Below are positions 22,789-62,075 of a DNA stretch of 64,000 nucleotides, piece after piece (position 1 is the stretch's first letter; the number at the start of each line of letters is the position of its first letter). A model generated the notes under the pieces. That model had not been told where the DNA came from. It did no database searches and saw nothing but the letters and a program-made list of their open reading frames with translations. The translations under genes and the position numbers were made by a program. Origin of the DNA: Octopus vulgaris (lineage: Eukaryota); contig OX597818.1 in NCBI GenBank assembly GCA_951406725.2, positions 121,024,001 to 121,088,000 on the forward strand, given 5' to 3'.

Positions 22789-22820
<32 letters not shown>

Positions 22821-22821
<1 letters not shown>

Positions 22822-24099: not shown

Positions 24100-24207
24100 C
24101 TCTCTCTCTTTCTCAGCATCTCTCTCTCTTTCTCAGCGTCTCTATCACTCCCTCTCCCTTTCTCGACATCTCTCTCTCTTTCTCAGCATCTCTCTCCTTT
24201 TCTCGGC

Positions 24208-24275
<68 letters not shown>

Positions 24276-28325: not shown

Positions 28326-28356
<31 letters not shown>

Positions 28357-31924: not shown

Positions 31925-31977
<53 letters not shown>

Positions 31978-32085
31978 GATGAGTGTATTTTTACCTTGTT
32001 AACAATTAACACGGAAAATATAAATAAATAGTTACCAGGGCAGCAAAAATATTTGATTACACCGGCGTTAACTCCATTTTTTTTA

Positions 32086-32122
<37 letters not shown>

Positions 32123-37743: not shown

Positions 37744-37787
<44 letters not shown>

Positions 37788-37877
37788 TGCATACTGGAAG
37801 AGCTTCTGACCCTAGAAAAACCTGTCTCAACAAAGATTTGTCTGATCCATGTAAGCATGGAATGGTGAATGTTAAAG

Positions 37878-37931
<54 letters not shown>

Positions 37932-39053
37932 CGATGATGATGATGATGATGTTGATGATGATGATGATGTTGATGATGGCAAAGGTGCATATATGACAGA
38001 CTTCCCCGTAGTTTCTTTGAATGAGCGAAACACCTAAGCCCCACGCGGCTCCGGCAGAAGGTAATGGCGAACTTCTGCTGACTCTTTCGCCACAACTTTC
38101 TCTCACTCTTTACTCCTGCATCTTGCAGCTCACCTGCTACGGACCGGCGTCCCATCCAGGTGGGGAACCTATACGCCAAGGAAACTGGGAAACCGGCCCT
38201 TATGAGCCAGGCGTGGCTCGAGAAGGAACAAACAATGATTGGTTAGGATAAATTTAGAGTTGGTGAAACGATAGCAGTTTAATGATATCTACAATGCTAT
38301 TTTACTAATATTTAGCAGCGAAGTATCCTCATTGTTTACAAATGTCCACTGTATTATTAGTCGAATAAGAAATGTACAGGAGACTAATATCTGCTGTCCA
38401 TGTAAAATTTCGAACCAACTGGAACAGCCCTATGTAGACACTCTACCTTCTAGAAATAACATCCTAATCTCCTTCAAATCACATCCTACCATTCTAAAAC
38501 GGGTAGAACATTTACATTGGGTAGCATTGTCCCCGGTACATTCTTCGTTCTCAATGATTAAGTTCAGCAGAATAAGTTTTAGAGTAATATCCTAAATTTA
38601 TTTAATTATGTTATTCTTTTTCAATCACTTAAGTACATCTATCCTCGTGTATCACAGATGTTTGGTTCCAAAATAAGAACGTGTTAAATGAATAAATGAT
38701 AAATGAATAATAAAACGTGGAGAAAATAGATTTCATTCTGAGACCCAAAGTTGTCCTGGTTACTGTGTATAATCGCTGGAGGGCACCCTTGACTGACCTA
38801 ACTATTGAATGTACTATGTTACCTCGTATCGGTGAGAAATGAATTAGTGATAAACGAGGATAGAAGTATATTTATTTTTGTTTCAGATATTTAAAGCTTC
38901 CATTTAAAATAATTTAAAATTAACCAGTAGAATTAATATTCTACTGGTTACTTTTAATCATTTGAAAACGATCATTTTACTCGTTACAGTAAAATATTAT
39001 TTGCTTGCATCTTTGCAAACTTATGACTATTTTTATTTTGTTTAATTGCTTAG

Positions 39054-39226
39054 GTCCTGTAGATGTATGCAAAGGTAAATCTGGAAGTTATCCAGACCCA
39101 GTCTCATGTAAGAGCTTTTACATATGCACGAATGGAAAAGGGTTTACTGCCTTCTGTCCTCCTAATCAGTTATTCGATCATGTTTCAAATAGTTGTGTTG
39201 AATCATCTCGGGCCAAATGTTCATGA
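39054..39226 (+). CDS. Second copy of the CBM14 terminal exon
   Basis: Same translation as 15130-15302. Confidence 0.85.
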
Positions 39227-40070
39227 GTTTCTCCAAGAAGACCACGAATCAATCTTGGAAATTAATAAATTTGAGAGTTTTTATCAAGGATTACCCATAG
39301 CAGGAAATTTTATTTCCAGTCTGTTGGTAAAATATTGTATTTAATAAAATATAGTATTAAATTTTATGAATATTTAAAATGCATTAAGTTTAATTTGTTT
39401 AAACTTGATTAAAAATCATTTTGTATTATCTTAAAATGCTTTTGTTTTTCTTGCAATTTGCTGTTACTTGAGTTAGTATAAATAAGACTGGGGTGTAAGT
39501 GTCCAATATCCAAACTTTATATTCAACCAATACCACTGTGAAGTCAATGGTCAAAATTTTTTTGTTAAAGGATCCAGTTAACCTGGCTATAAATAGGCAA
39601 AACAGTTCACCTAATATATTGATGTAATAGCTCTGATGAATTAAAATTTCCCAGTATTTAAATTCTGTAATACTTCATGAGTGGAGGCGCGTGGCTTAGT
39701 GGTTAGGGTGTTGAACTCATGATCGTAAGGTTGTAGTTTCGATTCCTGGACCAGGCGATGCGTTGTGTTCTTGAGCAAAACACTTCATTTCACGTTACTC
39801 CAGTCCACTCAGCTGGCAAAAATGAGTAATCCTGCGACGGACCGGCGTCCCGTCCAGCTGGGGAACACATACGCCATTGAAACCGGGAAACCGGGCCCAT
39901 GAACCTGGCTAGGCTTTAAAAAGGTGCATTTATTTTTTATTTAATACTTCATGAAGGTAAAGAATATAATTTTGTGGCCATTTGAAATAAAAAAAATTTA
40001 AGTGAAAAAATTGGTGGATTTTTTTCTCTTACTACTTGATAAATACTTATAAAGATTTTATCCTATTTTT

Positions 40071-40126
<56 letters not shown>

Positions 40127-40209
40127 CATACACAGATATATATATATGCACATATATATATATACATATGTAAATATATATATATACATATATACATATA
40201 TATACATAT

Positions 40210-40356
<147 letters not shown>

Positions 40357-40814
40357 CTTCCATGCAGTTTTTGTCCATCATGTTCAGTCACAAGGCATTG
40401 TTGTCCCGCGGGTATTAGTAGAAGACCTATACTTATGGTCTTATGGTGCTGCATAGGAGGACCGAAACCATGTAGTTGCAAAGTTAGTTTCTTGTTTTAA
40501 ACAAGAAATATTGGTAGAACATTCTCATCAAAAGTGTCGTAAAATACAAACATAACCACCTGACATGTTTATCTGGTATGGTTATTTACAGGTAGAGCAG
40601 TTAGTTCTTTATGTGTGAACGTTCAGTGAGAAAGGGAATATTTATGAACACTTGGCGCAGATGCAGCTGTGTGGTAAGCAGCTTCCTTCCCAACCACTTG
40701 GTTCCGGGTTCAGTCTCACTACGTGGCACCTTGGGCAAGTGTCTTCTACTATAACTTCGGGCCGACCAAATCCTTGTGAGTGGATTTGGTAGACGGAAAC
40801 TGAAAGAAGCCCGT

Positions 40815-40851
<37 letters not shown>

Positions 40852-41465
40852 ATTTGTTATTTGTGTCTGTGTTTATCCCTCATACCGTTGCTTGACAACC
40901 GATATTGGTGTTTACGTCCCCGTCACTTAGTGGTTCAGCAATAAGTGATTGATAGAATAAGTTCTAAGCTTACAAAGAATAATTCCTGGGATAGATTTGT
41001 TCGACTAAAGGTGGTGCTCCGGCATGGCCGCACTCAAATGACTGAAACATGCGAAAGAAAAGAATAAAAGAATAATTGATTCAAAATCCAAATTACAAGT
41101 TGTATTTGTACTCACAGTAATGGATACTCTTGCTTGTGTTACTAAACCTCTACGTGATAATCTGCAAAAGCTGGTATTTTCAGAAAAAGAAAATGTCCAG
41201 CTGACACGCCCGTAACACACTTAATGTATACAAGCAGTAAGTAGAACAATAAAGATATGCAAGACTGTTTAAAAGATTTAACATGTAGCTCTTTACCCAT
41301 GTTTTATTTCAATTCCAGTAATGGAGATTTATTTCTTTGTTAGAAACCCACTCCATTTTTATGGGGGGAAAGGTAAATAATTAATCAAAAACTGAGACTC
41401 ACACAGACACAGTCATATATGATAAATACAGCAGGCAATGTATTTGACTTATAATTCTGGTTTAA

Positions 41466-42329
41466 CTACACCATTATGTCGTGGTTATTCATTTCTTCAA
41501 GTGTATCTTTACTTTCGTCAAAGTATTTTGACGGACTTTGCGATGCTTGAATAGTATATACAGTTTTTTGCTTATCTTTTTTGCTTGTCTTACATTGCTT
41601 CTTTCGTTTCGTTCTGTGTCTAGGAATTTTACTATTTACAGCAGGGTATAATTTATCATTTGCAAGAGTAATAATATTTTCTGGTGATGTAGCACAGTCT
41701 TTTTTCACGTAATGTTTTTGTTGGTTAAATGTTAAAGTAGGTGTCCATGTGGGTATATAACTACTGACGTAAGAATACGTATCAGAATCATCAGAGAGGT
41801 CATATGATTGGGTTATTGACCCAGCAATATCGTTCTTTTGGAAAGGAATAGAGTCTTGTACCCATGAGTTTTCCGTATGAGATATATTCAGGTCTTTTGA
41901 GATGGAATCCTTCAGGGTAGAACTTAAATCGTGAGCTTGTGTGAGATCATTCGCAATAGAATCTCGCAAGTATGACAACTTTTTGCTCACTGGCGATACT
42001 TTATAAGAAGCTTGTCCATTTCTAAAGTTTGTGTCTTGACATTGTTCTTCCTTCGTCCACTTGTCTGTAATATCTCCAACTGAAGGTTGACGTATGAATA
42101 TATCCAACATTCCTCTAGGGAGCTCTTTGTTGTATTCGTTCAAGTTTTCTGCTGATTCAGTCCCTTCCTCTGTTGGAATATTGCCACTTATTTTATCATG
42201 ACAACATCTTATTGAGGAAGAACTATCAATTTCACCGGAATGTTTGCCACCGTCTTCAGAGGAAATCTGCATCAGTTTTCCAGTCGCTGTTGCTAAATGT
42301 TGCTGCAAACTGTGAATCAGAAGTTCTTT
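41466..42329 (-). CDS. GPR156-like terminal exon 7 ([12 protein letters not shown]...HDIMV*, long cytoplasmic tail)
   Basis: 864-nt open exon after acceptor TTTTTAG; continues the coiled coil; TAG stop. Confidence 0.82.
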   Translation of the reverse strand, partial: KELLIHSLQQHLATATGKLMQISSEDGGKHSGEIDSSSSIRCCHDKISGNIPTEEGTESAENLNEYNKELPRGMLDIFIRQPSVGDITDKWTKEEQCQDTNFRNGQASYKVSPVSKKLSYLRDSIANDLTQAHDLSSTLKDSISKDLNISHTENSWVQDSIPFQKNDIAGSITQSYDLSDDSDTYSYVSSYIPTWTPTLTFNQQKHYVKKDCATSPENIITLANDKLYPAVNSKIPRHRTKRKKQCKTSKKDKQKTVYTIQASQSPSKYFDESKDTLEEMNNHDIMV

Positions 42330-44945
42330 CTAAAAATATAACAAGAGAAACTAATAAACAAAATTTTAGCTACATATTTATTGTCATTGACATAGTTATA
42401 GAAAAGTTAGCAATAGATAAGGTTAGTTGGGACACGATAAAATTTTAGCTTTGTACCTGTACGTGAAACAGATACCAAGCCAATGAGAGACACTCTACAC
42501 GGTAGTACAGCTGCAAAGGTTCTACGGATATACTTCTGCTGTCTTAAAGACGGAAAGGATGCATTCGATAATTGCAATCCTTAAAAAGGATAAAATAATC
42601 ACATTTCGAATCATAGACCTTCGGTAGTCATAGACCTTCGGTAGTCATAGACCTTCGGTAGTCATAGACCTTCTGTGATCATAGACCTATGACCTTCTCT
42701 GATCTTCTGTGGAAAGGTTGATCGGTAACTAAACAACTACAAAAAGCAACCATAATACCTATTTCTTTACTACCCACAAGTGGGTAAACACAGAGAGGAA
42801 AAACAAGGACAGACAAACGGATTAAGTCGATTATATCGACCCCAGGACGTAACTGGTACTTAATTTATCAACCTCGAAAGGATGAAAGGTAAAGTCGACC
42901 TCGGCAGAATTTGAACTCAGAATGTAACGGCAGACGAAATACGGCGACGCATTTCGTCCGGTGTGTTAACGTTTCTGCCAGCTCGCCTAACCCTAACCTT
43001 AACCATAATACCAACACAGAGACAGTAACTGAGTATTTATATTACATACCAGCATGGTGGGAAGAGTTGTGGTTGATAGGTATTGAAGTGAGTTGGACTT
43101 CATGGAGATACAATGAAGTGCATGTGAGCGAGTTCATCGGTGTATAGATTGATTATTGGAAAGGAAACAGATGGTGTTTTTAGGTGAAGGCAATTTGATT
43201 GTTAATCCCTGCTGGATTAGTAGTGATTAATCAGAAAGCAAAATGTGGCCAGCAATTTCGGGAGAAGGAGTAAGACGATTATATCGACCCCAATATTCAG
43301 TTGGTACTTATATTATTTTTTCGAGCTCGAATGTATGAAAGGCAAAGTCAACCTCGGCAGAATTTCAAATCAGAATGCGAAGCATTTCACCCGGCGTGCC
43401 AGCAATTCCGCTCGCTCGTCGCTGTGATGTAGTTTATAGTATTAGCAAGAGACTGGAATTAGACGTATACAATACCATGAATAGTGACATGCAAGTAGGC
43501 GGAGCCGATGGGCCAACTGAAAGTGATTACCTTGTGGATCTTGGAGAGGTAGTAGGTACGAAGATGATGGGAAAATATGATGTACAGACGATGTGTTCAA
43601 TGGATATGTGAGGAAGTATTCTTATTCATGGTTCTGGCGTTGCTTTTCTCTTACCCCTATTTCGATATTCTATTATTAAGATGATAAAGAAAGCAATGTA
43701 ACTGTAATAACGTGATGAGATAAAGATATGTGAAGATATATGGAAGAATCTACAGTGTTCCCCAGGAGAGAGGTCGAGGAATTGTTTGAGGTTGTGCTGC
43801 AAACCACAGATGCTTTTCTGATACATACAAGAGTTGAAACGGTCGGTCATATGGAAAGGCAAACTAGATTCGTGTTGCGTAGAGAGGTGATGTCCTGGAT
43901 GAATGTATTGGCATTGTCTGGGGAACGAGATCAGGCATAGCATCCAGGTTTGGTGTGGTGAGGGGTGTTGAAGAAACTGTAGAACAGTCAGTCATATAAT
44001 TTATGGTCTTCATAAGGTGGCGAGCTGGCAGAAACGTTAGCACGCCGGGCGAAATGTTTAGCGGTACTTCGTCTGCCGCTACGTTCTGAGTTCAAATTTC
44101 CACCGAGGTCGACTTTGCCTTTCATCCTTTCAGGATCGATAAATTAAGTACCAGTTACGCACTGGAGTCGATATAATCCACTTACTCCGTCTGTCTGTCC
44201 TTGTTTGTCTCCTCTGTGTTTAGCCCCTTCTGGACAGTAAAGAAATAGGTATTTCGTTTGCCGCTACGTTCTGAGTTCAAATTCCGCCGAGGTCGACTTT
44301 GCCTTTCATCCTTTCGGGGTTGATTAAATAAGTACCAGTTACGCACTGGGGTCGATGTAATCGACTTAATCCGCTTATCTGTCCTTGTTTGTCCCCTCTG
44401 TGTGTAGCCCACAAGGGGCTACACACAGAGGGGACAAATAGGTATTTCGGTGTCGATAAATTAAGTACCAGTTGCGTCCTGGAGTCGATCTAATCGACTG
44501 CACCCCAACTCACTTCTCTAAACATTTCGGGCTTTATGCATAGAGTAGAAAAGAATTTATGGTCTTCATAGTCTGATTGCCATCAAAAGGTGATTAGGAA
44601 AGCTGTGAGAAGTGATGGGGTCGGATTTGAAAAGACTAATGATCCAGATATGGAAGTAAGGTGGTGTGATGCTAGTGAGGGTGAAGGGTAATTTGTTAGT
44701 GAGCAATAAAAATGGAGATATCCAGAAAGTTAACAGGTGCTAAGTATGATACATGTTAGTTCTAGAACAAGTGGGAGAAGTTCTTCGAAGAATATCATCA
44801 ATTGTATAAAATGATAAACCTGGAGCTTCTTCTATACCGGAAAAGCTGGTCGGTTGAAAGTTGATCATTTGGGGGAAGGAGGCGTTGGACATCTTACACA
44901 ATAAACATAATCCCAAAGGCCTGTATCTTCAATTCTGTGTGGGAA

Positions 44946-44990
<45 letters not shown>

Positions 44991-45547
44991 TGTACCGTTG
45001 TGTGTGTGCCTTTTGTAATTCCCCCTACACCTTTTGACAACCAGTGTTGGTTTGTTTACGTCCCCATCACTTAGCAGTCCGGCAAAAGATATCAATAGAA
45101 TAGGTACCAGACGTGGCCACAGTCCAATGACCAAACCAAGGATAAAAGAGATAAATAAATAAAAAAACAAAAGGTAGATCAATGAAATACTAACTGCTTG
45201 CATGGATCTTTTCAGGGCCGAGTTTTCTACAACTAAATGACACAGTTCTTCATAATTAGGTTCTCTTTTGCAATATGTTAAACGCTTAACAGCGGTAACA
45301 GCAGCTGGGGAATCTAATTTGTCGCTTTTACTTTTTCTCCACAATAAAATCTGAAAACATTAAAAACATTTAGAAATACAATTTGAAATTCAGGTCTGAC
45401 AAGGTTACTGCTTCGAATGTGATAATATATGACCCCGTAGATATTCTATGGTTTAATTAAAAACAACTGTTAAGTATCGACGACTAATGTGACAGGTGCG
45501 CGCACATATACGAACACCCTCACTCTCTCACACACACGCAGCTAATT

Positions 45548-45617
<70 letters not shown>

Positions 45618-45904
45618 AGCCAGTAGTGTTTGTATGTATGAGTGGTTATATATACCATTAGCGTCAATTTGAATCACTTTTTTCCCACGCACTTTATTTT
45701 TCTCACTCTTACCTCTCTCTCTCTCTCTTTCTCGGCATCTCTCTCTCTCTTTCTCAGCGTCTCGCTTTCTCGGTATCTCTCTCTCTCTCTCTTCCTCAGC
45801 GTCTCTCTTTCTCTCTTTCTTAGCATTTCTCTCTCTTTCTCGGCATCTCTCTCTCTCTCTTTCTCAGCGCCTCTCTTTCTTAGCATTTCTCTCTCTTTCT
45901 CGGC

Positions 45905-45948
<44 letters not shown>

Positions 45949-46756
45949 GTCTCTCTCTCTCTCTCTCTCTCTCGGAGTCTCTCTCTCTCTCTCTTTCTCG
46001 GCATCTCTCCCTCTCTTTCTCAGCGTCTCTCTTTCTTTCTCGGCATCTCTCCCTCTCTTTCTCAGCGTCTCTCTCTCTCTCTCTCTCCCTCTCTCTCTCT
46101 TGCTGCACGCGATTGTGCAATGCCCGAAGGTGACTGAACTCTGGGCTTATGTCGAACACCTGCTGTCGCATTCGAGAAGTGTACAACTGTCGAGCGAATC
46201 TGTAATGAAGATAGTTCCGCCGACCTTCCTGAATAGGGAGGAGCGAGCCTGTTTCCTCTCGGTAGTTGCTATGGCGAAAGAAGTAGTGTGGGAGACGAGA
46301 GTAAAAGGAATTTCAACAGGCATGTTTATCTCCAGTCTCGAGCTAATCGACTTTTTCGTTTTCCACATGAAACGGAAAATAAGGCTGGAGAAGAAATGCC
46401 TGTCGCAAAGTGTGTTTCGTAAAAGATGGAAGTCTATAGCAAGTATGTTGCGAGTGAAAGAACCTGTTTAATCAAGAATGTGAAAAAGGAGAAAGCAAAG
46501 TCTTCAGTGTGAGTATGTGGTTTGTGGGGTCAACCACGTCCTCCGCTTCATTTTTTGTTATTCACTCATTATCATTTAATTGTATATATTTTAATTATTT
46601 GTTTATTCATGTTTCGTCTCATTCGATACCCTGACCCAACGTTTGTTTTGTCCCCTCTTTTTCTCAACTTTATGGTGAATAAAGAAATACTCTCTCTCGA
46701 CGTTTCTCTTTCTCTTTGTCTTTTTCGGCGTCTCTCTCTCTTTCTCAGTGTCTCTA

Positions 46757-46799
<43 letters not shown>

Positions 46800-49700
46800 G
46801 AAGCTGTCCTTGAAAGGGAGGGCGGAGGTTGCAGAAGTGTTTATCGCCTCTGTAATCACTTACCGCCTAACCGTAGTGCCTTGCCCCGATTCGTGGCTGA
46901 ACAAACTGGAACGCATGCTCTTTCGCTTTTTGTGGAGGGGCAGCAGACCTCTTGTAAGGCGCTCTATTTGCTGCCAAAAGCCGCTGGAGGGTGGGTTAGG
47001 GATGCCGTGGCTAAAAATGCGCAGACATGCGCTCAGGCTTAGGCACCTCTGGATTTACCTGGACGGTTAGCAGGTGTGGTCTCCGTTTGTCAAGCTGTTA
47101 TTTCCACAGTTCACATCGTTTAACGAACTGAACCCATGAATCAAGTGTAGACCGAGGTTGGGCATGTAGCATGCAGAGTGCTATCAGGCACTCGTGCTTC
47201 TCTCCCAGTCGGGCAACGCCGGTGGCGGGGGTACTACCTCGTTCTTCTATAGAGGGTTAGTAGAGTTTAAGTGAGACGACGTCCTAGGAGAAACTCTGGG
47301 CTTCGACGAAAATCAACTGGCCAGCCTGTTCCAAAGAACATTCCGTCCGGGGCCTATGGATAATTACCAAAAGTCCCTGGCCTGGCAATGTTACAGAGGA
47401 GCTTTACCGGTTCGAGATAAGCTCTTTAGACATGGGTGTGCACCTTCGCCGGTTTGTGCAAGATGTAAGAGGGACAGGGAAACTGTCCTGCACGCGATTG
47501 TGCAATGCCCGAAGGTGACTGAACTCTGGGCTTATGTCGAACACTTGCTGTCGCATTCGAGAAGTGTACAACTGTCGAGCGAAACTGTAATTAAGATAGT
47601 TCCGCCGACCTTCCTGAATAGGGAGGAGCGAGCCTGTTTTCTTTCGGTAGTTGCTATGGCGAAAGAAGTAGTGTGGAAGACGAGAGTAAAAGGAATTGCA
47701 ACAGGCATGTTTATCTCCAGTCTCGAGCTAATCGACTTTTACGTTTTCCACATGAAACGGAAAATAAGGCTGGAGAAGAAATGCCTGTCGCAAAGTGTGT
47801 TTCGTAAAAGATGGAAGTCTATAGCAAGTATGTTGCGAGTGAAAGAACCTGTTTAATCGAGAATGTGAAAAAGGAGAAAGCAAAGTCTTCAGTGTGAGTA
47901 TGTGGTTTGTGGGGTCAACCACGTCCTCCGCTTCATTTTTTGTTATTCACTCATTATCATTTAATTGTATATATTTTAATTATTTGTTTATTCATATGTT
48001 TCGTCTCATTCGATACCCTGACCCCAACGTTTGTTTTGTCCCCTCTTTTTCTCAACCTTATGGTGAATAAAGAAATACTCTCTCTCTTTCTCGGCATCTC
48101 TCTCTCTTTCTCAGCGTCTCTATCACTCCCTCTCTCTTTCTCGACATCTCTCTCTCTTTCTCAGCATCTCTCTCCTTTTCTCGGCGTCTCTCTCTCTCTC
48201 TCTCTCTTTCTGGTAATGTAACTGATTGTTGGATGTCAAATATACGAGTGACAGAGTAAGATGATTAAATATTTTACTGATGACGAATTGGATGCTGTTT
48301 ACATGATTTATGACAAAATGATTGATGGTAGGATGCCTGATATAGAAGGAGTGATAGATTGTAGGATCGATGAATATTGTTTTATTGACTATTGATCTGA
48401 TTATGATTAGGTGATGTAGGTATTATGAATGATGGCAAAGGAACTGATAGAATAGAATGGCGGTATGCATAGATAACAAATGATAAGATTGATTGGTGAG
48501 TGGTCTATTATTTGACGTTTTATCTGTTTAATTGTCAAATATTACATGATCTAATATTTGTTAGTCGACTTTATATGATGGTTTAATATTTACTAATTAA
48601 GTATTTTGTGGGTGAATAGTATCTTGTGGTCTAATAATTACGTCTCAACTCTTTGCTGCTTTAATCTTTAGCCATCCGTTGACTTACTGTTGATGCTTTT
48701 ACTATCATTATGAGTATTCTGATTTTAGAATTTGTATACTCTGTCTCTGCAAAAGACGATAACAGGATTGGCGCAAGGAAGATCATCAAATTAAACACTG
48801 TATCATAAAATTAGTAAAAGCATTTGAAAGAGCCTTAGATCACAATACCGAAGTGTATAACATTTATTATGTCTTAAGTGTATATATTAATTGAAATCAA
48901 AATCAAATTCCATGACTGGCATCCGTGCTAGCGGGGTGCAAAGAGCACCATACAAGTGTGATCGTTGACAGAGCAGCTAACCGGCCTCCGTGCCAGTGGC
49001 ACATAAAAGGCACCATTCGAATATGATCGTTACCAGCGTCGCCTTACTGGAACTTGTGCCCGTGCTAGTAGGGTGCCAAGAGCACCATCCGAGCGTGATC
49101 GTTGCCAGAGCAGCCAACTGGCTTCCGTGCCGGTGGCACATAAAAGGGCACCATTCGAGCGGGATCGTTACCAACGTCGCCTCACTGGCACCCGTGCCGG
49201 TGGCATGTGTAAAAAGATTCGAGCGAGGTCATTACCAGTACCGCCTGACTGGCCCCCGAGCCGGTGGCACGTAAAAAGCACCCACTACACTCTCGGAGTG
49301 GTTGGTGTTAAGAAGGGCATCCAACTGTAGAAACTCTGCCAGATCAGATTGGAGCCTGGTGCAGCCATCTGGTTCGCCAGCCCTCAGTCAAAATCGTCCA
49401 ACCCATGCTAACATTAAAAGCGGACGTTAAACGATGATGATGAGGAGGAGGATTCTAGCCTGGTTAGCTTTAGCACAGATCAGTAAATGTTTTGTTTACT
49501 GATTTATATATCTGAACAAGTCAGAGACTGACTGAGAGTATTAAGGGCCCTCGGGCATAACTGTTTACCGGGCCCCTTTGAATGTGTGTTTTAGTAGAGT
49601 GAACATGTAGAGTGCAGGCCCCTCAGAGCTCCGGGGGCCCTCAGGCAGTGCCCGATTTACCGACGGCTCAGTTCGCCTTTGGAACAAGTATTCTCAGCTT

Positions 49701-52252
49701 GGCTCAGATCGCCTGGGGTTTTCGTCAAATGAGGTTGAAACATCGTGCCAGGTGATTCTTTGGCATTTTCATTTTGAAATACATCTCTAAGATGAATTAC
49801 TACAATTAGTACCATTCCACATTTGTATATACGTTATAAATGTACACACCTCAGTACTTTTAATGAAGGTTACTTCAGTTAATTTTTTATTCCTATTCAT
49901 TATTTTGTTTTATTTTCTAACTGATTTGTCTGTCATACTGATCTTCCCGTCATGATAAAAAGTGTTTTTAAATAAAATTTAACATCAGTTCGTAAAATGT
50001 GACGAAGAAGGACTCACCTTAGGTATGAATATAGCAGATTGAGTAAATAAAGCAAATAGCCAAATTATGACTGTAAGACCAGAATTCACCACAACAGGCT
50101 TTTCTCGAAACAGGTGCCAAAGAGCAATGCTACTGCTGCACAAGATGAAGACCGTCAGAATTATCAGTATCATAGGTTTAGCATCGTCCATTGAAGGTAA
50201 AGTAATGTTACGAATTTGCCAGGCTACATATAAGCCGAATGACAAAACGCTTCCTTTATAGATAAACAATAATGACATCCATATGTATTCGAACTCACAA
50301 CAACATCTGGGTACATTGATGACGCTGGATGCATTCATGTTAGATCTGGATGTTAAGTTTTCCTGTAAGTATAGGAATATCACTGAACAATTTTACTCAA
50401 AATTGTTCGGTTAAAGAGCGGTTGAGTTATTTCTCGTAATGTTAATAAATTTAATGATTATTTGGCAATTAGATAAAAGAGAAACATTTATTGGAAAATT
50501 TAATAAAATAGAATGCTTATTTGTCAATTTAAATATAGAAAAACTATTATTTGGTAATTTAAGTAAAAATGATTTTTATCAATTTAATCAACTGTAACTG
50601 TAGACTATATTGCGAATTTATTCATCTGTATAATATAATATACACATAACGCACACTCACACACACACCGACACACTATAAGAGCGAAGTATTTGAAGCA
50701 TCAAAATTGGCGTCAATAGATTAGATTAAGAAAGTAGATATACTTTCATGTACCTCGAGGTTATATTGTATTTAATAAGACCATAAAATTATCATAATAC
50801 TTTTTCTGGCTTAATCAGAGAAAAGTGCCGCTCTTATAGCAAAGCAATGAAGCTGAATGCTCTAGTTAACTCTAGTTAACTAAAACAAAGACAGATATCT
50901 GAGCTGACAACTATAGTTACATAAAATCATTTTTTAATAGAAATCATCGTAACATGTTAACTGGAGCCAGATGAAATTAACTTCGCGTCATATACGAACT
51001 CAGGGCTAATCGCTTGTTATTTTATATGTACTCTAACAAGCTTTTTTCTTTGCAAATAAGAATTTACTCGACAGCCATTGAAGCTGATACTTAATTCTAT
51101 ATACTGGATTCTCCCTGATATCAGTAAACTATGGAATTTTGGCAGCCGCCTTTATATCTTAGGAATATGAAAAGTACCACACATTAGAAGTAGGTTTCTA
51201 CTTGGCAATAAAGGGCCCTCTGTGGTTGCTCGGCTTACGAGAAATAGCAGCCAAGTATCTCCCCCCCCTCTCTCTCTCTTTCTCTCTCTCTCAGCCGTCG
51301 TAAAGAAAAGACAAAATGGGCGATGTAGACCTTGGCATACAAAATAACAAGATGTTCGCGACTGGAATATCATTGACCCTCGGTTTGTTTTTTTAGAGCT
51401 TATATGAGAATAAAAGTAACTTCAAGAGTATTGAGTTCCCAGAGTTAAACTTGCGATACAGTCTCAGTTTTCAATTGTTGTTATATATCTTGTTTTCTAA
51501 ATCGGGAATGGGAAGAATGCCATGTAATCTCATATCTATAAACATTATAAATCTAGGATCCTTTTCAGTTTGAACGGCAGTTTTTTCTAGCGGTGTCATA
51601 TGAAATTGTCACCCATAATTATGACCCTAGTATCGATCTGTTACATTTCAATCTGTTTTAGGGTTAGGGTTAGTTAGGATTAGGGTTTGGGTTAGGGGTG
51701 AGGGGAAGGGTATCTTTTTTTCTTCAGAAATGTAAATAAACCCAATCTGTTTCTTAAACGAGGGACATATGCATACGGCACAGAATGTTTTCACCTCAAT
51801 GGACGTCATTGATTGGTTGAAATTGCAGAAATTGAAGAAAAAAACAACAAATATCTTACAAACTATAGAATTTTCTCAATAAAGCCAAGAGAAAAAGATG
51901 TTTTATAAACACATTCTACCAGTATACGAAGTTTAAAAGTGTTTAGTTACGTGGAAATTATTTTTAAAAACTGCCGGTCAAACCGGAATGATCCGAAATC
52001 TAATAAACATATATAAATCTCACTTACTTTGGTAATTATTGGAATAAATCGATGCTTTAATGGATCCAGAGCTTGCCAGAACGTCATAAAAAACATGTCT
52101 ACAGATAGATTTGCTCCAATGAATATAAACAACCGCAAATCTTTAATAACCTGTCAAATCACATGTGCAAAATTAAATCAAATTTTACTGAAATTTCAAT
52201 CATTATTATTATCATTATTATTATTATTATCATCATCATTATTATTATTATC

Positions 52253-52286
<34 letters not shown>

Positions 52287-55200
52287 ATAGTAGTAGTAGT
52301 GGTGGTGGTGGTGGTGGTGGTGGTGGTGGTGGTGGTGGTGCGGCTAAGTTTTCTTTAAAATTTGTTGTTTCATTAGTTGGTTTAGTAGACATTAGCTATG
52401 GAGGAAAAAATCCAAAATTATTATTTAATGCGGCCAATATTAGTCGAATCAACTTCTAGTTGATGGTATTTCTGGCGGACCGTTTCTATTTAATAACTCA
52501 ACTGAATAATCCTTCATTATTTCTTTCTCTGCGACGTTAATGCTATCAACACGTCTATATGATATAGTATTTCTTGGCATAAGATGAAGATGTCATTGTT
52601 TGTTGGTTTCAAAACATGTGTGAAAAGTCTGGCTGCATCCGAAAAAATATATATTATGAAACAAAAGTAAACACAAAATTTATTACACGAATCTGTTACC
52701 ACCACGACAGTCAACTATTTAACGCTGAACACGAGTTTGATGTTGAATACATCCACGAATTTTCTGCTCAGATAGCTCTTCCCAAGACTGCAAGACGGCT
52801 TCGTGCAATTCATGCCACGCTGTAGGGTTTTTCAGTTCAACTTTATCGACCAAAGTTAATAATGATTCTGCTAATTCCACGTGTAAACATATGCTGAATG
52901 AAACTCACTGAATAAATCTTAATTAACTGTGTTGTCAATTGTATGCACCTGACATATGCTAACGTGTATGCACCTGACATATGCTAACGTGTATGCAGCC
53001 AGACTTTTCACACATAGGATACATTTTAAGAGTTATTGTTATGATTATCTATCTTTGAGATGACAGACTTACAATTTACGTTTCAACAACAACTATCGGC
53101 GGTGTATTTTTCGTTTGTCACTGTTATTTATGACATCGTTCGTGCGTTTGTACTGGTTTTAAGGTTTTAGGGTTATGGTTAGGGTTTTAGGGTTTTAGGG
53201 TTAGGGTTTTAGAGTTAGGGTTAGGGTTAGGGTTTTAGAGTTAGGGTTAGGATTTTACGGTTAGGGTTAGGGTTGTCATAAATAACAGTGGCAAACGAAA
53301 TATACACCGCTGGAAGTTCTTGTTGAGAAACAACAGCAGTAATTTTATTCAGCTGAATACACGTCATTGATTGGTTGAAATTACCGAAATAGGACAACTT
53401 TAATGTTAAATTTTCTCAAAAATGCTAAGAGTAAAAGATGTTTCATATGACACACTCTACCAGTGTCCAAAGTTTGAAAGTGTTTCGTTACAAAAAAATG
53501 ATTTTAAAAATCTGTAGGTCAAAAGGTAAATATCCAAAAATCTTTGAATAACGTATAGCCTATGCCTGGAAAAAGGCATAATTGTCACAGCTGGAATGTG
53601 CTTAAACACTGTACTGCTCAATCAATGCTGACCTGGAACTAAACCACAATTACCCACTGCGCTGACACCCAGAAAGCCATTGGATGAAAATGTAGAGATG
53701 TGTATGTGTGTGTGTGGTTATTACTTACCACCCTCTTGAAAGCTGCCTTCTTGAAGATTTGGTTGACACGCCAACATTTCGCTAAAATTGGCACCAAAAT
53801 CAGTGTAAAAGAACAAACCAGAAACCAAGCACGTATCTGAAATGGAAGGCAGAGTTAAATGAGGAAAAAACTGTCTCGAATATGAGATCAAGTGAATGGA
53901 AATTATTTTGTTATTTACGTGTTGGTTCTCGAGCTCAAAACCTACTGCAAATGTGGCTATAGCACCTACTTACTGCAAGAGAACTGCTAGGAGTTTTAAG
54001 AAAAGACGACAGACATAGGTAAAATGCACGTGCAAAGAGCCCCAAATAAATGCATAAATAAATATGAATTTAATTCGACCAAAACCAGTGAAAAAACATG
54101 TAAAGAATGTGGACCGCATCACCTTTCGCTTTTTTTTTTTTTTTTTACAGAATTCCCCATTTTCGTGTTTGTCTCCACCATCACCACTTGACAGCCGGTG
54201 TTGGTGTGTTTATGTCCCTGTAACTTAGCGGTTCGGCAAAAGACACCGATAGAATAAGTACTAGGCTTTAAAACAAAATAAGTCGTGGGGTCAAGTTCTT
54301 TGATTAAAACCCTTCAAGGTGGTGTTCCAGCATGGCCGCGGTGAAATGACTGAAACAAATAAAAGATTAAAAGTGTGTGTGCGTGTGTGTGTGTGCGTTC
54401 TTGTGTATGTGTGTGTGTGTGTGTTAGCACTATCTCCGCCAACGTAAATTAAACTTGATCAAATATTCATCAAATACTTTTTTACTTTCTAATTTCACTG
54501 TTGTTAAATGCTTTTTTTTAATTTTCAGGAAAATTTCAATAAAACATTTGCATTCTCCATTTCCCAAGAGACATAAGCGTGTTTTTCACGCATTCAAGCC
54601 ATTAAAAGTTTTCATGTTATACGTCATCTGTACGTTCTATTTGGTCACATGATAAAGTATGTCGTCTGCTCGCTGTATTTGCTCCTCCTTAGTTAAAACA
54701 CATCGCAGCTTCCTTGAATTTTCAAGGAATTTCTTCCACCCACGGACCTGAGAGTAACTATGTACCACCTTGCAAAATTTTTCTAAGAAGCCCTGAAAGT
54801 TTATATAATTTTTTTTTTTTGTAGGAGTGGCTTACTTACGAACCACATGGTTCCGGGTTCTGTCCCACTGCGTGGCACCTTGGGCAAGTGTCTTCTACTA
54901 TAGACTCGGGTCGACCAAAGCCTTGTGAGTGGATTTGGTAGATGGAAACTGAAAGAAGCCCGTCGTATGACATGCTTTCATGACATGAAAGTATATGTGC
55001 ATGAATGAGAAATAGGAAGAGAGCGACTGAGAGATAAGGGGGAGACAGACAGACAATCACATACACAGAGAAAGGCACAAAGACAGACAGGCACACAGGC
55101 AGACAGGCATACACAGACAGATGCACACACACACACACACAGGCTAACAGATACAGACAGACAGACACACAGAGAAAGGCACAAAGACAGACAGGTACAC

Positions 55201-55899
55201 AGGCAGACAAGCACACAGACAGACAGTCACACAGGCTGACCGATACACAGACAGACAGAGATTCAGAAATAGAGGCAGGTCAATGAAAGCTCAGTAAGAG
55301 TTCTGATAATAACAGCAACAATAGTTTACCTGGCATAGCAATGTTGCTGCAAAGCTGTGATATTGAGTATAGACTTGGAGACCATAAATGAGACAACAGC
55401 TATTTGATAGCATACTTCCAGTGCAAGTCACTGCATTCAGATGTGGGCTTGACATTTTGATTAATCTATATGTGAGTAAAAAAAAAGAGTCATGTAATTA
55501 GAAAGGAAAGGAAGCTAAAGAAGAAGAAGAAGAAGAAGAAGAAGAAGAAGAAGAAGAAGAAGAAGAAGAAGAAGAAGAAGAAGAAGAAGAAGAAGAAGAA
55601 GAAGAAGAAGAAGAAGAAGAAAGAAAGAAAGAAAGAAAAATAGAGAAATGGTGACTTTTCTAAAGTTGATTCAACATTAGACATTGTTTCTTTCCAGAAG
55701 GGTTTTTAATCAGAAATTATTTGTTTGGGGTGATTGTGTGGTAAATAGCTTCCTTACCAACCACATGGTCCCGGGTTCAGTTCCACTGCGTGGTACCTTG
55801 GGCAAGTGTCTTCTACTATAGCTTCAGGCCAACCAAAGCCTTGTGAGTGGATTTGGTAGACGGAAGCTGAAAGAAGCCCGTTGTATATATGTGTATATA

Positions 55900-55954
<55 letters not shown>

Positions 55955-57138
55955 GAGTGTATTTTTACCTTGTTAACAATTAACACGGAAAATATAAATA
56001 AATAGTTACCAGGGCAGCAAAAATATTTGATTACACCGGCGTTAACTCCATTTTTTTTATTCATATATATATATATATATATATGTATATGTATATGTAT
56101 ATGTGTATATATATATATGTATATATATGTCTGCTCAGAAATCAAGCAAACTTCAAGAATAATAGTTAAGGTGCTGGCATAGCCATGTAGTTAAGCAGTT
56201 AGCTTCACAAACACAAGCGTCTGGGTTTGATCCTATTATGTTATACCTTGGTAAAGTGTCTTCTACTGGGATGTGTAAGGTTTAGTTAACAGAAACTATA
56301 CTGAAGCTCATCATATATGTGCATGTGTATATGTGTAGTTGTGCTGAAGTATTCTGGTGTAGAACAGTACATCAAGTTGTAGCTCAGTCTACCAAAGGAG
56401 ATCAAATTCATCTATTTGATAAACAAGGATCAATAAAGTTGAAAGAAGTACATGGGTGGGTGTGATCCATTGAAATTATCTTGTTGTTGTTGTTAAGCAA
56501 CAAGACTGGTAAGGATGATTAGGTGATGGTCTAGGGCTTAGGGGCGAGAGACCCCAGACCTTGGAGAAAAAAAAAACTTTGGTCATCATGTTGTAGTTGA
56601 GGGCTCTTCGTTGACACCCGACACCACTGGGTGGTGGCCCTCGAAGTCGTTGGAAATGGAAATCTCCAGGTCCAAATTCCTGAACGGCTTGAAATTCTCT
56701 TGAAAGCAATGTCCCAGCATTTTGCATTGTGGTAGACTTAATCCATCACCCAGTTTAACATCTCCACCTGGCTCTAAAGTGTCTTTTCATGAGTCCTTTC
56801 TGTTACAAGAATTTGAACAGGGTCTCCAATTTGAGGATAACTTCCATGCTTCTTAACTTCCAGTTATCATTCCCACCACTACCACCACCACCATCACCAT
56901 CAAAATCATCAACCATGATAATTGTTCTTTCGCCACTCAGTCAGTCATGATAAATATAAAACCAGAAACCTGATGAATGAAATTGACAGGAAAAATTAAA
57001 AGCATAAAAAGAGAAAATAATTTACCTGTGTTTTCTATAAAAGATATTGAAAGCCAAGAAGTATATAGACACAATGGTACCCGTGGTGGCCAGAAAGATT
57101 GAGAGCCAAAATAGTTCCTGAGTTAAAGGTTTGTCCAT
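41466..57138 (-). CDS. GPR156: GPR156-like (GABA-B-related, VFT-less) class C GPCR, intact copy, 7 coding exons, 614 aa
   Basis: Exons 57026-57138, 55330-55465, 53729-53836, 52028-52150, 50018-50362, 45195-45350, 41466-42329 all have AG/GT boundaries and join in frame (phases 2,0,0,0,0,0). Motifs [56 protein letters not shown] and a coiled coil [23 protein letters not shown] match the GABA-B/GPR156 7TM family as recalled. The symbol is a best match; orthology is untested. Confidence 0.85.
45195..45350 (-). CDS. GPR156-like exon 6 (ILLWRKSK...SALKRSMQA, start of coiled coil)
   Basis: 156 nt, acceptor TTTCAG, donor GCA|GTTAGT, in frame with neighbouring exons. Confidence 0.8.
46103..46689 (+). 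mobile_element. Duplicate of short Tx1/L1-like insertion
   Basis: Copy of 22133-22719. Confidence 0.8.
46799..48077 (+). mobile_element. Duplicate of longer Tx1/L1-like insertion
   Basis: Copy of 22821-24099. Confidence 0.85.
50018..50362 (-). CDS. GPR156-like exon 5 (ECL2, TM5-TM7, ends FIPK)
   Basis: 345 nt, acceptor TTACAG, donor AAG|GTGAGT; ECL2 Cys, YKG motif, FxPK TM7 motif. Confidence 0.9.
52028..52150 (-). CDS. GPR156-like exon 4 (VIKDLRLF...WQALDPL...ITK, TM4)
   Basis: 123 nt, acceptor GACAG, donor AAA|GTAAGT. Confidence 0.88.
53729..53836 (-). CDS. GPR156-like exon 3 (IRAWFLV...[23 protein letters not shown]3/ICL2)
   Basis: 108 nt, acceptor TTTCAG, canonical donor GTG|GTAAGT; KxWR class C TM3 motif; too short for the ORF track. 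Confidence 0.88.
55330..55465 (-). CDS. GPR156-like exon 2 ([10 protein letters not shown]...TLLCQ, ICL1/TM2)
   Basis: 136 nt, acceptor ATAG, donor CAG|GTAAAC, GABA-B-family IKMSSP motif. Confidence 0.88.
57026..57138 (-). CDS. GPR156-like coding exon 1 ([16 protein letters not shown]...FYRKHR, TM1)
   Basis: ATG in AAAATG context with an in-frame TGA 9 nt upstream; donor AG|GTAAAT; upstream acceptor TTTTGTCTTGTAG (exon starts 57174). Confidence 0.8.
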
Positions 57139-60100
57139 TTTATTTCAAACATCCATTGAGTATGTTCCACTTCGCTACAAGACAAAAAAAAACTAAATCA
57201 AGAAATTTATAGAATGTGATTTATTAATATTATCGCTACTGCTATTATTATTACTACTCTTCATAGGCTGTTACTGACAACCAATCAGTATCCTCGTTAG
57301 CAGCTGCAGTGCCGTTTTCATTATCATCACCATCATAGTCGTTGTCATCATCTTCATCAACATCAACATCATCGTTGTCATGGTCAGCATCTCTAACAAC
57401 ACAATCTGCACAATCATTACTGACATTAATATTGATTTCTAACAGACACAACACAGCTTGTCAAATTTTGGACAGGTTTGAAATTGATCCCAGTAATTCA
57501 CTGGTACTTTATTTTATCGATCAGCAGAATAGTGAAAGATTATGTTGACCTTGGGGGATTTGAACCTAAAACATACTGAGCTGTAACTAAATACCATAAG
57601 GTGCTTTGTCTGACACTCTAATGATTCTGCCAAACCACCATCCCTAACTATCATCAATATCACTGATCCACAAGGCAGCAAGTTAGCCGAACCATAAGCA
57701 AACTCAGCAAAATGCTTAATGGCATTTTGTCTGTCTATACATTCTGAGTTCAAATTCTACCAAGGTCGACTTTGCCTTTCATCCTTTCAGGGTTGATGAA
57801 AATAAGTACCAGTTGAACACTGGGGTCGATGTAATTCACTAACCCCTCGCTTGATATTGCTGGCCTTATGCCAAAATTTGAAACCAATATTACTAGTCCA
57901 CTATATTACTATCATCAGACCAGCATTACCAAAATTAATGTCAGCTAGAAGTCACCTCTGTCTTCGACAAAAACCAGTAACAATAATAACAAAGCCTGCA
58001 GTTTTTCACGGGAAGGAGTTAGCTCCAAGGACTTGAATGGTACTTAATTTTATTGACCCTAGATGAAAGCAAAGTTGACCTCAATTAGATCTGAACTCAG
58101 AATATCAAGAGCCAGAACTAATATGGCAAGTTTTTTTCCAACACTTAAGCAATTTTATCAGCTCACTGTCTTAACAATAATGATTACTGCAGTGGCAACA
58201 ACAATATCAAGCACTTAGGACATGTAAGAGAGAGGCAACATACTCTGATTGCCACACCACAGACTACACAACAAGTCTTCGTTCATACGTAGATCACATA
58301 ACATTTCACAATGAAAATAAACCTCATACACCATGCATTCACTATCTCTTACAAACCACAAATTAGTTTTCTTCTATCTCACTTACAAACCACAAAACAG
58401 TTTTCATTATGACATTACAGGTCTCATAACGTCTTCATTTCTATTCTATAAACCACCCAACATAACTTTGCTATCACACTGCAGGCCAGACATGTCTTCA
58501 CTCCCATGCAACACTTCACAAAGCATGCCTTCACTCCTGTACTTCGCACCACATAATATCTTCATACTACACCACACATCACACATATCTTAACTACCTC
58601 ACAACAAGCCACACATCTTCACTCTGCACTATACACCGCACAATATGCCTTCTCTCTGAACTACATGCTTCACAACATGGTTTCACTATCACACTACATG
58701 TCACACAATAGCTCCATGATTTTCAGTGTCTTAGTCAAAAAAGGACAAGGTTCCTTGTCCACTTCGAACACTTCCAAAATTAGTAGGAGGAAAGTACTGA
58801 GACTTTAGTTTCAATACTTAAGGCAACCACAGACCAGACAGTGGTATTAAATAGGGAAGGGATGGATTAAAAGTAGCACACTTCACATTGCACATGTCCT
58901 CATTAACATACTACAACTTATATGATGTTCTCCATTCCACACTACATCCCATGCAGCATATCTTCACTGCCATATTATTTGCTACAGTGCTACACAATCT
59001 TCTATCACATTAAACAATTACACATGTTCTCAATAGGTGCAGGAGTGGCTGTGTGGTAAGTAGCTTGCTTACCAACCTCATGGTCCCGTGTTCATTCCCA
59101 CTGCATGGCACCTTAGGCAAGTGTCTACTACTATGGCCTCGGGCTGACCAAAGCCTTCTGAGTGGATTTGGTAGACGGAAACTGAAAGAAGCCCATTGTA
59201 TATATGTATATATATATGTGTGTGTGTGTTTGTGTATCTGTGTTTGTCCCCCCAACATCGTTTGACAACTGATGCTGATGTGTCTATGTCCCCGTAACTT
59301 AGCAGTTCAGCAAAAGAGACCAATAGAATAAATACTAGGCTTACAAAGAATAAGTCCTGGGGTTGATTTCCTCGACTAAAGGCGGTGCTCCAGCATGGCC
59401 GTAGTCAAATGACTGAAACAAGTAAAAGAGTAAAAGAGTTATACTGCCTCTCATGCAACCAACTACTACATCAGAGGGTGTATACTGTAGGGTCAATACA
59501 CATTGAAGTTATTATGTGACTGTAAACTATGAAAACAAGAACAGCAGTAATAGCTGACAACTTGGTCTTGTCTTACCATCATGTGAAGTCCGGATTGCTA
59601 GAAATGGTAGTCAAAGTCTCAAAGTTTTAGCAACACCAACATTTTCTTCAGACTATGAAACATAATATAAAGTGAGATATTAACCTGCTGATGTTGATAA
59701 CAAAGGCACTGCAGAGTGGCTGAATTTTTCATTGGTGCTCATTGCTGATCGTTTAAGCTTAATGTGGACAATTCCTGTATAGGTATGATTATTGTTACAG
59801 AAGTGTCAAGTAGCTTAATTTTCAAGCCACCAGATTCTCGAGTGTAGAGTGGGGATTTGTTATTCCTGTAATCTGTCATGACTTGTATATGTACATTCAA
59901 AGTGACATGTATTGATGTTGTAGTCTAGCAACTAGCAAATCTGAAGTACATGGTCAGCTGCTTTAAAGAAATAACAATAACATCAATGGCAATAGTAGTA
60001 ACACCAACAAAAGTAACAATAGTAAGAACTATATCAGTAACAATAACAAAAAGTTGACTAAGAAGCCATTACTACATGCTCTCTCTACTATCGCTGCACT

Positions 60101-61713
60101 TCAACTCGCAAGAAATAACTGCTAAATCAAAGTACAAATTGTTTAAGATATAGGCGCAGGAGTGGCTGTGTGGTAAGTAGCTTGCTTACCAACCACATGG
60201 TCCCAGGTTCAGTCCCACTGCGTGGCATCTTGGGCAAGTGTCTTCTGCTATAGCCCCGGGCTGACCAAAGCCTTGTGAAACTGAAAGAAACTGAAAGAAG
60301 CCTGTCGTATATATGTATATATATATATGTATGTGTGTGTTTGTGTGTCTGTGTTTGTCCCCCTAGCATTGCTTGACAACCGATGCTGGTGTGTTTACGT
60401 CCTCGTCACTTAGCGGTTCGGCAAAAGAGACCAATAGAATAAGTACTGGGCTTACAAAGAATAAGTCTGAGGTCGATTTGCTTGACTAAAGGCGGTGCTC
60501 CAGCATGGCCACAGTCAAATGACTGAAAGAAGTAAAAGAGTAAAAGAGTAAAGAGTATACCAACTACATGACAGAACAATACATAACCTGGTGTCGACAT
60601 ATTTAATGCAAAAAGAATTAAAAGCTAACAAGAAAAGTGTTGAAACTCCTATTTGTTCGCTGTAGTGGTAGCTCTCTTTAGGCAAATTTTATGTTTAGTT
60701 TTTTTAAATTTTATTTATGGCCAATACATAATGTTACATGACATGTCGGGAATTTTGCCAGAGAGGCAGGGCCAATCCATAAAGTTACATTACATATTGG
60801 GGATTTCGCCAGAGGGGCAGGCCCAACCGATAATGTTACATGACATGTCAGCGAATGCACCAGAGGGGCTGGATCAAGCAATCACGTTACATGACATGTT
60901 GGGGATTCACCAGCGGGGCAGACCCTACCTATAACGTTACATGACATGTCGGGCAATTTGCCACGGGGGCAGTGCCAATCCGTACTGTTACATGACATGC
61001 CAATGTTACATGACATGTCAGAGATTTCACCAGGGGAGCAGGCGCATGCCATAACATTACATGACATGTCAAGGGATTTGCCAGAGGGGCAAGCGCAACC
61101 CATAACATTACATGACATGTCTGGATTCACCACAGGAACAGGGCCAATCCGTAATGTTACATGACATTTTGCTGATTTCGCCAAAGGGGCAGGGCCCATA
61201 ATGTTAGATGACATGTTGGGAAATTCGCCAGAGGGGCAGGACCAATTCAAAACTTTAGATGACATGTCGGGGATTTTTCTCAACAATGCCAAGAGTAAAC
61301 GATGTTTTATGTGACACATTCTACCAATATACGAAGTTTGAAAGTGTTTTGTTACAAAAAATTATTTTTTAAATCTGTAGGTCAAAAGGTAAAGATCCGA
61401 AGATTTATCAGTTATTTTTGTTATGTCAAGCAACTACATAGAGGGTTCCTCAGTAGCTCATAATACTCATAATTTTAAAAGCTGGAAATGTATTTTCTCT
61501 TTTATTTGTTTATTATTTACAGCGCTTTCATACTATGGCTGTGCTGGGGTTCTGCCTTCCAAACCTTTACTCATTTGATTCCAATACTCTGTCTGGTACA
61601 TATATTTTTTTTTTTTTACTTATCTGTACATGACTAAGTTTACCTTAGGTATTTTTGTTTGCTTAATTGATTTATTCCTTGCTAATAAGCATGTGCATAT
61701 GCAAGCACACACA

Positions 61714-61755
<42 letters not shown>

Positions 61756-61845
61756 TGCATACTGGAAGAGCTTCTGACCCTAGAAAAACCTGTCTCAACA
61801 AAGATTTGTCTGATCCATGTAAGCATGGAATGGTGAATGTTAAAG

Positions 61846-61887
<42 letters not shown>

Positions 61888-61949
61888 CGATGATGATGAT
61901 GATGATGTTGATGATGATGATGATGTTGATGATGGCAAAGGTGCATATA

Positions 61950-62075
61950 TGACAGACTTCCCCGTAGTTTCTTTGAATCAAATCTCCCTCACAAGACTGT
62001 GGTGAGGCCGAAGCTATGGTAAAAGACACTTATCCAAAAACCCAATATGATGTACAGTGAGCTTGAACCCTAAAA
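61950..62075 (-). mobile_element. Degenerate SINE family A spanning the array's right breakpoint
   Basis: GACAGACTTC...CAAATCTCCCTCACAAGACTGTGG...GCTATGGTAAAAGACACTT aligns by eye to the reverse complement of family A. Confidence 0.7.

Follow-up and report, generated by a model that had tools for sequence, protein, structure and literature searches.

The 64,000-nt stretch of the Octopus vulgaris genome analyzed here (contig OX597818.1, positions 121,024,001 to 121,088,000; below, the window) carries a seven-exon gene for a G-protein-coupled receptor (GPCR) of class C, encoding a 614-aa protein with seven transmembrane helices (7TM) and neither a Venus flytrap (VFT) nor a cysteine-rich ectodomain. 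Both the gene and the absence of the VFT are real. Sequence comparison supports placement of the protein in the GPR156 orthogroup, outside the GABBR1, GABBR2 and R3 clades. We favor, at somewhat better than even confidence, an explanation in which this intact receptor is a likely Gi/o-coupled dimer, controlled by membrane lipid and by trafficking via its tail and likely of lower basal activity than human GPR156, and in which two extra tandem copies of the gene are likely dead.

The gene is read from the minus strand, and its seven exons, with introns that are all GT-AG, splice to a 614-aa open reading frame. Exon 1, the first coding exon (57026..57174), holds 36 nt of 5′ untranslated region (UTR), the ATG at 57138, about eight extracellular residues and TM1. 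Exon 2 (55330..55465) encodes intracellular loop 1 (ICL1, with KMSSP), TM2, extracellular loop 1 (ECL1) and C82 (position 3.29); exon 3 (53729..53836) encodes TM3 (PILAKCWR) and ICL2, exon 4 (52028..52150) TM4, and exon 5 (50018..50362) ECL2, TM5–TM7 and the ionic-lock residue D220. The end of TM7 and the first half of a coiled coil come from exon 6 (45195..45350), and the remaining coiled coil, a second conserved helix (residues ~440–480), the tail motifs, the C-terminus DIMV and the stop from exon 7 (41466..42329). The exon-3 donor GT, intact only in this one of the three copies (copy C), is backed by a junction of the O. sinensis isoform X2 model, which leaves out exon 4. The original prediction had assembled the same protein by hand, and its splicing holds: the product differs at 3 of 614 residues from the 614-aa O. 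sinensis 'probable GPR156 isoform X1' (P0002; four NCBI accessions, XP_036358939-42). Its class C assignment was likewise borne out by a Pfam scan, in which 7tm_3 alone was found (residues 8–275, E 1e-32, 113.9 bits against a cut-off of 33.5). The AlphaFold model of P0002, built on a 25-sequence alignment and replacing a poor four-sequence model (pLDDT 45), shows seven helices, the first starting at residue 5, together with a beta-hairpin in ECL2 and further helices at 308–352 and ~440–480 (mean pLDDT 68; helices mostly 85–97).

Several observations show that TM1 is preceded by almost nothing. An in-frame TGA (57147-57145) lies three codons 5′ of the ATG within the spliced first coding exon, as originally predicted along with the ~8 residues before TM1, and that exon begins at a strong acceptor, 57174. 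We mapped four sequencing runs to 55700-63600 and found depth in the bin of the first coding exon in one of them; one contig of this probable RNA run matches exactly 57026-57174 with 0 differences and departs from the genome at the donor, so that use of the 57174 acceptor is supported. The contig extends 133 letters past the donor without matching the intron, an extension that would represent splicing to exon 2 (136 nt), which lay beyond the mapped region. Among runs with the 3′ exon none was recorded as RNA; several were guessed to be RNA, and none came with a tissue. Any upstream exon joined at the 57174 acceptor would, given the in-frame stop, be non-coding for the receptor, and no use of the internal CTCAG/GAACTA splice site was seen in the four runs over the mapped region. 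ANF_receptor domains had 74 matches genome-wide and 0 on the contig of the gene. A profile of the ectodomains of 58 relatives, run across 204 kb around the gene, found none (best E 0.86), and as a positive control it detected the exons 5′ of TM1 in octopus GABBR1 (E 2.5e-5). We therefore rejected upstream VFT exons: no VFT sequence appeared in the 204-kb search. The first coding exon (149 nt) and the 151-nt linker-plus-TM1 exon of the octopus GABBR1-like gene (L019) end at the same point, in phase 2; on that one comparison, the 36-nt UTR may be a decayed VFT–TM1 linker.

The original prediction had put the protein in the GPR156 lineage rather than inside GABBR1/2, and trees with approximately unbiased (AU) tests, together with its GPR156-type coiled coil, lead to the same placement. 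Word-index homolog searches were insensitive (1, 9 and 7 matches), and the tree set was drawn from the best 150 matches of a profile search, giving 160 proteins, of which 148 with TM coverage were kept and 12 partial ones dropped. The main tree (76 of the 148 aligned proteins, 267 TM columns, site-heterogeneous model) united 18 invertebrate and 8 vertebrate GPR156 rows in one clade with support 98/90. Thirteen of the 18 invertebrate rows are named (Octopus, Argonauta, Patella, Haliotis, Pecten, Lingula, Tubulanus, Proales, Acanthaster, Diadema, Holothuria, Saccoglossus and Branchiostoma), and of the eight vertebrate rows the shrew and opah GPR156 are named, the other six being assigned by clade. 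The VFT-less clade thus takes in amphioxus, hemichordate, echinoderm, brachiopod, nemertean, rotifer and mollusc, with no arthropod, nematode or cnidarian among the named members. Its branching roughly tracks the species tree, its sister group pairs a Lingula protein that has a VFT with one from Capitella (93/95, not starred), and GABBR1 forms a separate 100/100 clade. In a 48-row tree without cephalopods, outgroups and other long rows, the clade reached 100/100. The AU tests, which covered nestings with GABBR2, rejected both cephalopods plus GABBR2 (p 0.0225) and vertebrate GPR156 plus GABBR2 (p 0.0236), and on these and the trees we rejected nesting within GABBR2. An ANF_receptor domain was absent from all 23 clade members scanned, and the N-termini span 8–60 residues in 20 of the 22 invertebrate clade rows, those with an intact start. 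The octopus genome has separate GABBR1-, GABBR2- and R3-like genes (labels from exon similarity), the GABBR2-like gene being on another contig (L020, G000:C7 near 125414800); a 2026 GABA preprint (10.64898/2026.09.08.749565) reports GABBR2 as not detected in Spiralia, unlike this octopus finding. As for GPR158/GPR179, their Cache-type ectodomain (PF22572) was absent from the Pfam matches of the octopus protein, GPR158 was not among 30 PDB matches, and its language-model score was 0.80 against 0.97 for GPR156; the trees were made without GPR158/179.

The tails were left out of tree building and so agree with the GPR156 clade independently. A profile of 10 mollusc-clade tails scored a median of 37 bits on vertebrate GPR156 tails (n = 21) and 0.4 bits on other family members (maximum 19.7, n = 95). 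The coiled coil, which occupies the same position as that of GABBR2 (positional homology), was searched alone against the PDB, where its matches were weak (E ~1) and GPR156 was the sole class C match; the others, repeat proteins and generic coiled coils, we discarded as chance. The three motifs that the original prediction had read as GPR156-type, counted here with relaxed patterns, did distinguish the group: PILxKxWR, KRVxIKDL and IxSLQ occur in 21/21, 21/21 and 20/21 vertebrate GPR156 and in 10/22, 12/22 and 9/22 invertebrate clade members, against 1/102, 3/102 and 2/102 other GABA-B-family proteins. A terminal T-x-V, which we take to be a class I PDZ ligand, is found in 17 of 21 vertebrate GPR156 and 10 of 22 invertebrate clade members, and in 1 of 102 other rows. 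The T at −2 is kept in the close relatives P0006 and P0023 and in most vertebrates, with S or T in most other invertebrates; the Octopus, Argonauta and P0017 proteins (P0002, P0005 and P0017) end in DIMV without it. Exon 7 also encodes (41466-42000) the tail motifs LRxSIAxDL, AGSIxxSYxL..YSYVSS and LxNDKLYP, which have no Pfam match; molluscs, brachiopod and nemertean all conserve them, and echinoderms do so in part.

Residue states bear on the likely activity. In the column of the GABBR2 lock residue D688, all 22 invertebrate clade members (D220 in octopus) and all 102 other proteins are acidic, whereas 20 of 21 vertebrate GPR156 have Q; C3.29 is kept in 22/22 invertebrate members (C82 in octopus) and 0/21 vertebrate GPR156. 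The octopus protein therefore lacks two vertebrate-GPR156 hallmarks, loss of the lock (6.35) and loss of C3.29 with the TM3–ECL2 disulfide, and these traits, highlighted in PMC11621567 as peculiar to GPR156, turn out in our alignment to be vertebrate-only. Constitutive activity cannot be assumed, because the invertebrate members keep the acidic lock residue and the TM3 cysteine. Much of the G-protein pocket is shared: R78, M82, S84, N88, K141, R144, F149, R157 and Y241 of human GPR156, which matter functionally there (PMC11621567), correspond to octopus R38, M42, S44, N48, K103, R106, F111, R118 and Y205, so that Gi/o coupling is plausible. Of the 22 invertebrate clade members, 20–22 retain K3.50, R3.53, F3.58 and the residues of ICL1; F3.44 is L in cephalopods, and P3.46 is common to molluscs and vertebrates, though not to ambulacrarians, amphioxus or Lingula. 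Human F135, R152, D222, L237, R279, F318, Y331 and F332 are unmatched in octopus, and mutation of all of these save R279 lowers basal activity of the human receptor (PMC11621567); of the proximal-tail set F318, M328, K330, Y331 and F332, K330 is matched, in a loosely aligned stretch.

Three units of ~24 kb each, arranged head to tail and ~0.2–0.4% apart (99.6–99.8% identity in clean columns), carry the gene. The intact version sits in unit C (38023..61978; 23,956 nt), where the native flank upstream is also retained. Unit B (14099..38022; 23,924 nt) has a gene copy at 33207-17537 in which the exon-3 donor GT has become CT at 29758, and unit A, which begins 11.5 kb left of the window and has its right part at 1..14098, shows the same donor loss at 5936. 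Copy A has in addition lost 1 nt from its exon 7, which lies outside the window; database prediction P0004 mirrors this deletion. Exon 5 has three identical genome matches, all in the window, and no further copy. The donor state of copy C is ancestral, as O. sinensis shows. Over 21,610 clean columns B and C show 40 differences and A shows 82 from each; private variants number 62, 20 and 20 for A, B and C, with 55 of A's 62 in the first 3.3 kb. One and the same novel join, with 2-nt microhomology, forms both unit junctions, a pattern that fits a single duplication followed by unequal crossing over. From copy B we predict products of 119 aa (via a cryptic site at −5) or 148 aa (intron retention), or, upon exon-3 skipping, 578 aa without TM3. 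Three consecutive database predictions labeled O. vulgaris (proteins P0003 and P0004) match these tandem copies, but they begin in the wrong frame within exon 2 and lack most of the 7TM, likely through misannotation. The sequences indicate that the two extra copies are likely non-functional, and the suggestion that amplification may matter did not survive: a dosage gain is unlikely because both extras lost the exon-3 donor, A has a frameshift and only 4.8 kb of upstream DNA was duplicated. Functional amplification was accordingly rejected.

In the explanation we favor, the VFT would have been lost once, before the protostome–deuterostome split. The receptor would dimerize, by the rule for class C, and would couple to Gi/o, as the shared pocket residues suggest; a retained K103–D220 lock and C82–ECL2 disulfide would restrain it. 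By analogy with human GPR156, which binds phospholipids acting as agonists (PMC12444479), and for which, in hair cells, the switch is delivery to the apical surface and not expression (PMC8558554), the octopus receptor could be held inactive and tuned by membrane lipid and by localization through its tail. The triplication would be neutral. A broader proposal, tentative and put by us a little short of even, is that GPR156 is ancient and pan-bilaterian and that self-activation arose in two steps, an early VFT loss and then remodeling of lock, disulfide and tail on the vertebrate stem.

Some results weigh against this account at the level of family placement. Match scores against solved structures put GABBR2 (148 bits) ahead of GPR156 (120) and GABBR1 (83–103), a four-sequence profile gave the same order of GABBR2 above GPR156, and in a fold search with the P0002 model the best folds were GABA-B and GPR156, GABBR2 being narrowly ahead. 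A language-model search did put GPR156 clusters on top (0.96–0.97), a ranking that may mirror architecture. Because plain similarity favors GABBR2, the GPR156 assignment rests on trees and tails, and here the AU p values of ~0.02 are moderate, the vertebrate stem is a long branch (1.8), gene predictions make up many of the clade members, a long N-terminus is also absent in 36 of 102 other family rows (probably mostly fragments), and the terminal-motif T is absent in Octopus and Argonauta. These top scores, the patchy and perhaps convergent P3.46 and the NCBI label 'GABA-B receptor subunit 2' on several members could mean that a GABBR2-like paralog lost its VFT independently, with the GPR156 grouping due to long-branch attraction and convergent motifs. 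We consider that highly improbable, given that the grouping became firmer once long rows were removed, that both AU tests reject it, that branching stays near the species tree, and that tail profile and terminal motif agree independently. The tandem copies, too, could be read otherwise, as an assembly artifact, or conversely as functional amplification raising dose. Their near identity would suit either idea, and through a weak cryptic donor at −3 copy B would yield an in-frame 613-aa product, a point against our view of that copy; yet the same novel join at both junctions, the private variants of each copy and the presence of three versions, more than two haplotypes, argue against an artifact, and the donor losses and frameshift against dose, so that we judge both forms improbable.

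The remaining alternatives concern function. The original prediction expected ligand-independent constitutive activity, and an ortholog as constitutively Gi-active as human GPR156, one that may set cephalopod sensory-cell polarity, would accord with the orthology in trees (98/90; 100/100), with the kept core activation residues, with the lack of an ectodomain to hold the receptor inactive, and with the finding that the N-terminus and ECL2 of human GPR156 barely affect its basal activity (PMC11621567). Several vertebrate features tied to activity are absent, however: the lock residue and C3.29 are retained, and seven human residues whose mutation lowers basal activity are unmatched, leaving such activity doubtful and this alternative unlikely, though a real contender. 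Cephalopod statocyst hair cells are polarized, but since orthologs are found in scallop, brachiopod, sea urchins and rotifer, presence in octopus says nothing specific on hair cells. Restraint itself has points against it: PMC11621567 numbers S257 as 6.35, whereas the GABBR2 D688 column corresponds to Q256 (neither is acidic); and fly and human GABBR2 carry the lock yet couple when activated, so that its hold on a VFT-less receptor may be strong or slight. Nor do the shared pocket residues prove Gi/o coupling, since GABBR2 has them too. A non-signaling or accessory subunit, pairing with an octopus GABA-B subunit or scaffolding trafficking, would suit the position of the coiled coil, the several strongly conserved invertebrate tail motifs, the cephalopod F3.44 to L change and the existence of octopus R1-, R2- and R3-like partners. 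It seems quite improbable to us, as conservation of K3.50, R3.53, F3.58 and the ICL1 residues is what selection for coupling would lead one to expect, and a GABA-receptor role was ruled out for vertebrate GPR156 (PMC8129141). A homodimer prediction for residues 1–350, with the alignment not used, scored 0.13 against a mark of 0.32 and was counted neither way; the TM5/6 dimer-interface residues of human GPR156 appear partly different in the octopus protein.

Other features lie nearby. A convergent chitin-binding (CBM_14) gene has its last exon in every unit (plus strand, 39054..39226 in unit C), with copies at 15130-15302 in the window (B) and at G000:C5:121013488-121013670 (A); in B and C it has no upstream exons within the unit, and five residues differ from A. 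These copies are possibly alternative 3′ exons. Intron 5 contains (45880-48200) non-LTR retrotransposon fragments (zf-RVT) with a duplicated 3′ end amid CT microsatellites, and a degenerate tandem repeat whose unit contains TTACATGACATGT lies at 60730-61280, ~4 kb 5′ of the first coding exon. A gene with a TLC domain (L006:3933-4430), ~60 kb off on the same strand, is the nearest one found upstream. At window-relative −22400 to −15800 (L012-L013), fragments of reverse transcriptase, presumably Penelope-like, and of GIY-YIG cluster in both orientations.

GPR156, which acts downstream of EMX2 in orienting vertebrate hair cells, has been studied almost exclusively in those cells. Our literature search found one paper grouping a VFT-less invertebrate receptor, from ascidians, with GPR156 (PMC9138782) and no paper on GPR156 in cephalopods, with subscription journals and supplements outside its scope and an earlier phylogenetic mention possible; the accessible parts of PMC8129141, PMC12499500 and preprint 10.64898/2026.09.08.749565 do not treat invertebrate GPR156, and those of the preprint do not mention GPR156. 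The family is already known and the gene already auto-annotated; what merits pursuit is the clade's pan-bilaterian reach and the loss of the lock in vertebrates alone. Bilaterian-wide orthologs would date VFT loss before the bilaterian split and imply a role older than ear patterning, and invertebrate proteins with the lock allow a direct test of what makes GPR156 constitutive. If the two-step proposal is true, invertebrate GPR156 would be lockable, switched by lipid, a pocket ligand or PDZ-type trafficking, and would serve as a natural inactive-state model for a human deafness-related receptor. The local triplication is a plain case of young duplicates decaying, one that confused automatic annotation.

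Among known systems, GABBR2 has the highest raw similarity and shares the lock (K574–D688), the TM3–ECL2 cysteines and the place of the coiled coil, but it has a VFT of ~450 residues and works as a heterodimer, and octopus has its own GABBR2-like gene elsewhere. The ascidian VFD-less GABABR2-like protein (Styela clava, Ciona) also lacks a VFT and clusters with GPR156 (PMC9138782); it is a chordate protein, outside the present trees, reported in that source near ocellus pigment cells. The O. sinensis 'probable G-protein coupled receptor 156' is the same protein (611/614 identical), and the 'probable GPR156' of Patella vulgata, Pecten maximus and Saccoglossus kowalevskii belong to the same clade with the same architecture; these names are automatic, we found no functional study, and other clade members are labeled GABBR2-like or uncharacterized. 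Vertebrate GPR156 (GABABL; human 8IEB, 8YJP, 8YK0) is alike in lacking a VFT, in its class C 7TM and clade, in KRVxIxD of ICL2, the W after TM7, the coiled coil EKxxxIxxLQ and the core G-protein pocket, and, for the wider clade, in the terminal T-x-V. It is unlike the octopus receptor in its N-terminus (~45–55 residues against ~8), in F318 and the MAKYF tail motif, both missing from octopus, and in its changes at C3.29, the acidic lock, the AWxxR end of TM5 and the PK of TM7, all of which octopus keeps, along with invertebrate-specific distal tail motifs and, in octopods, the terminal DIMV.

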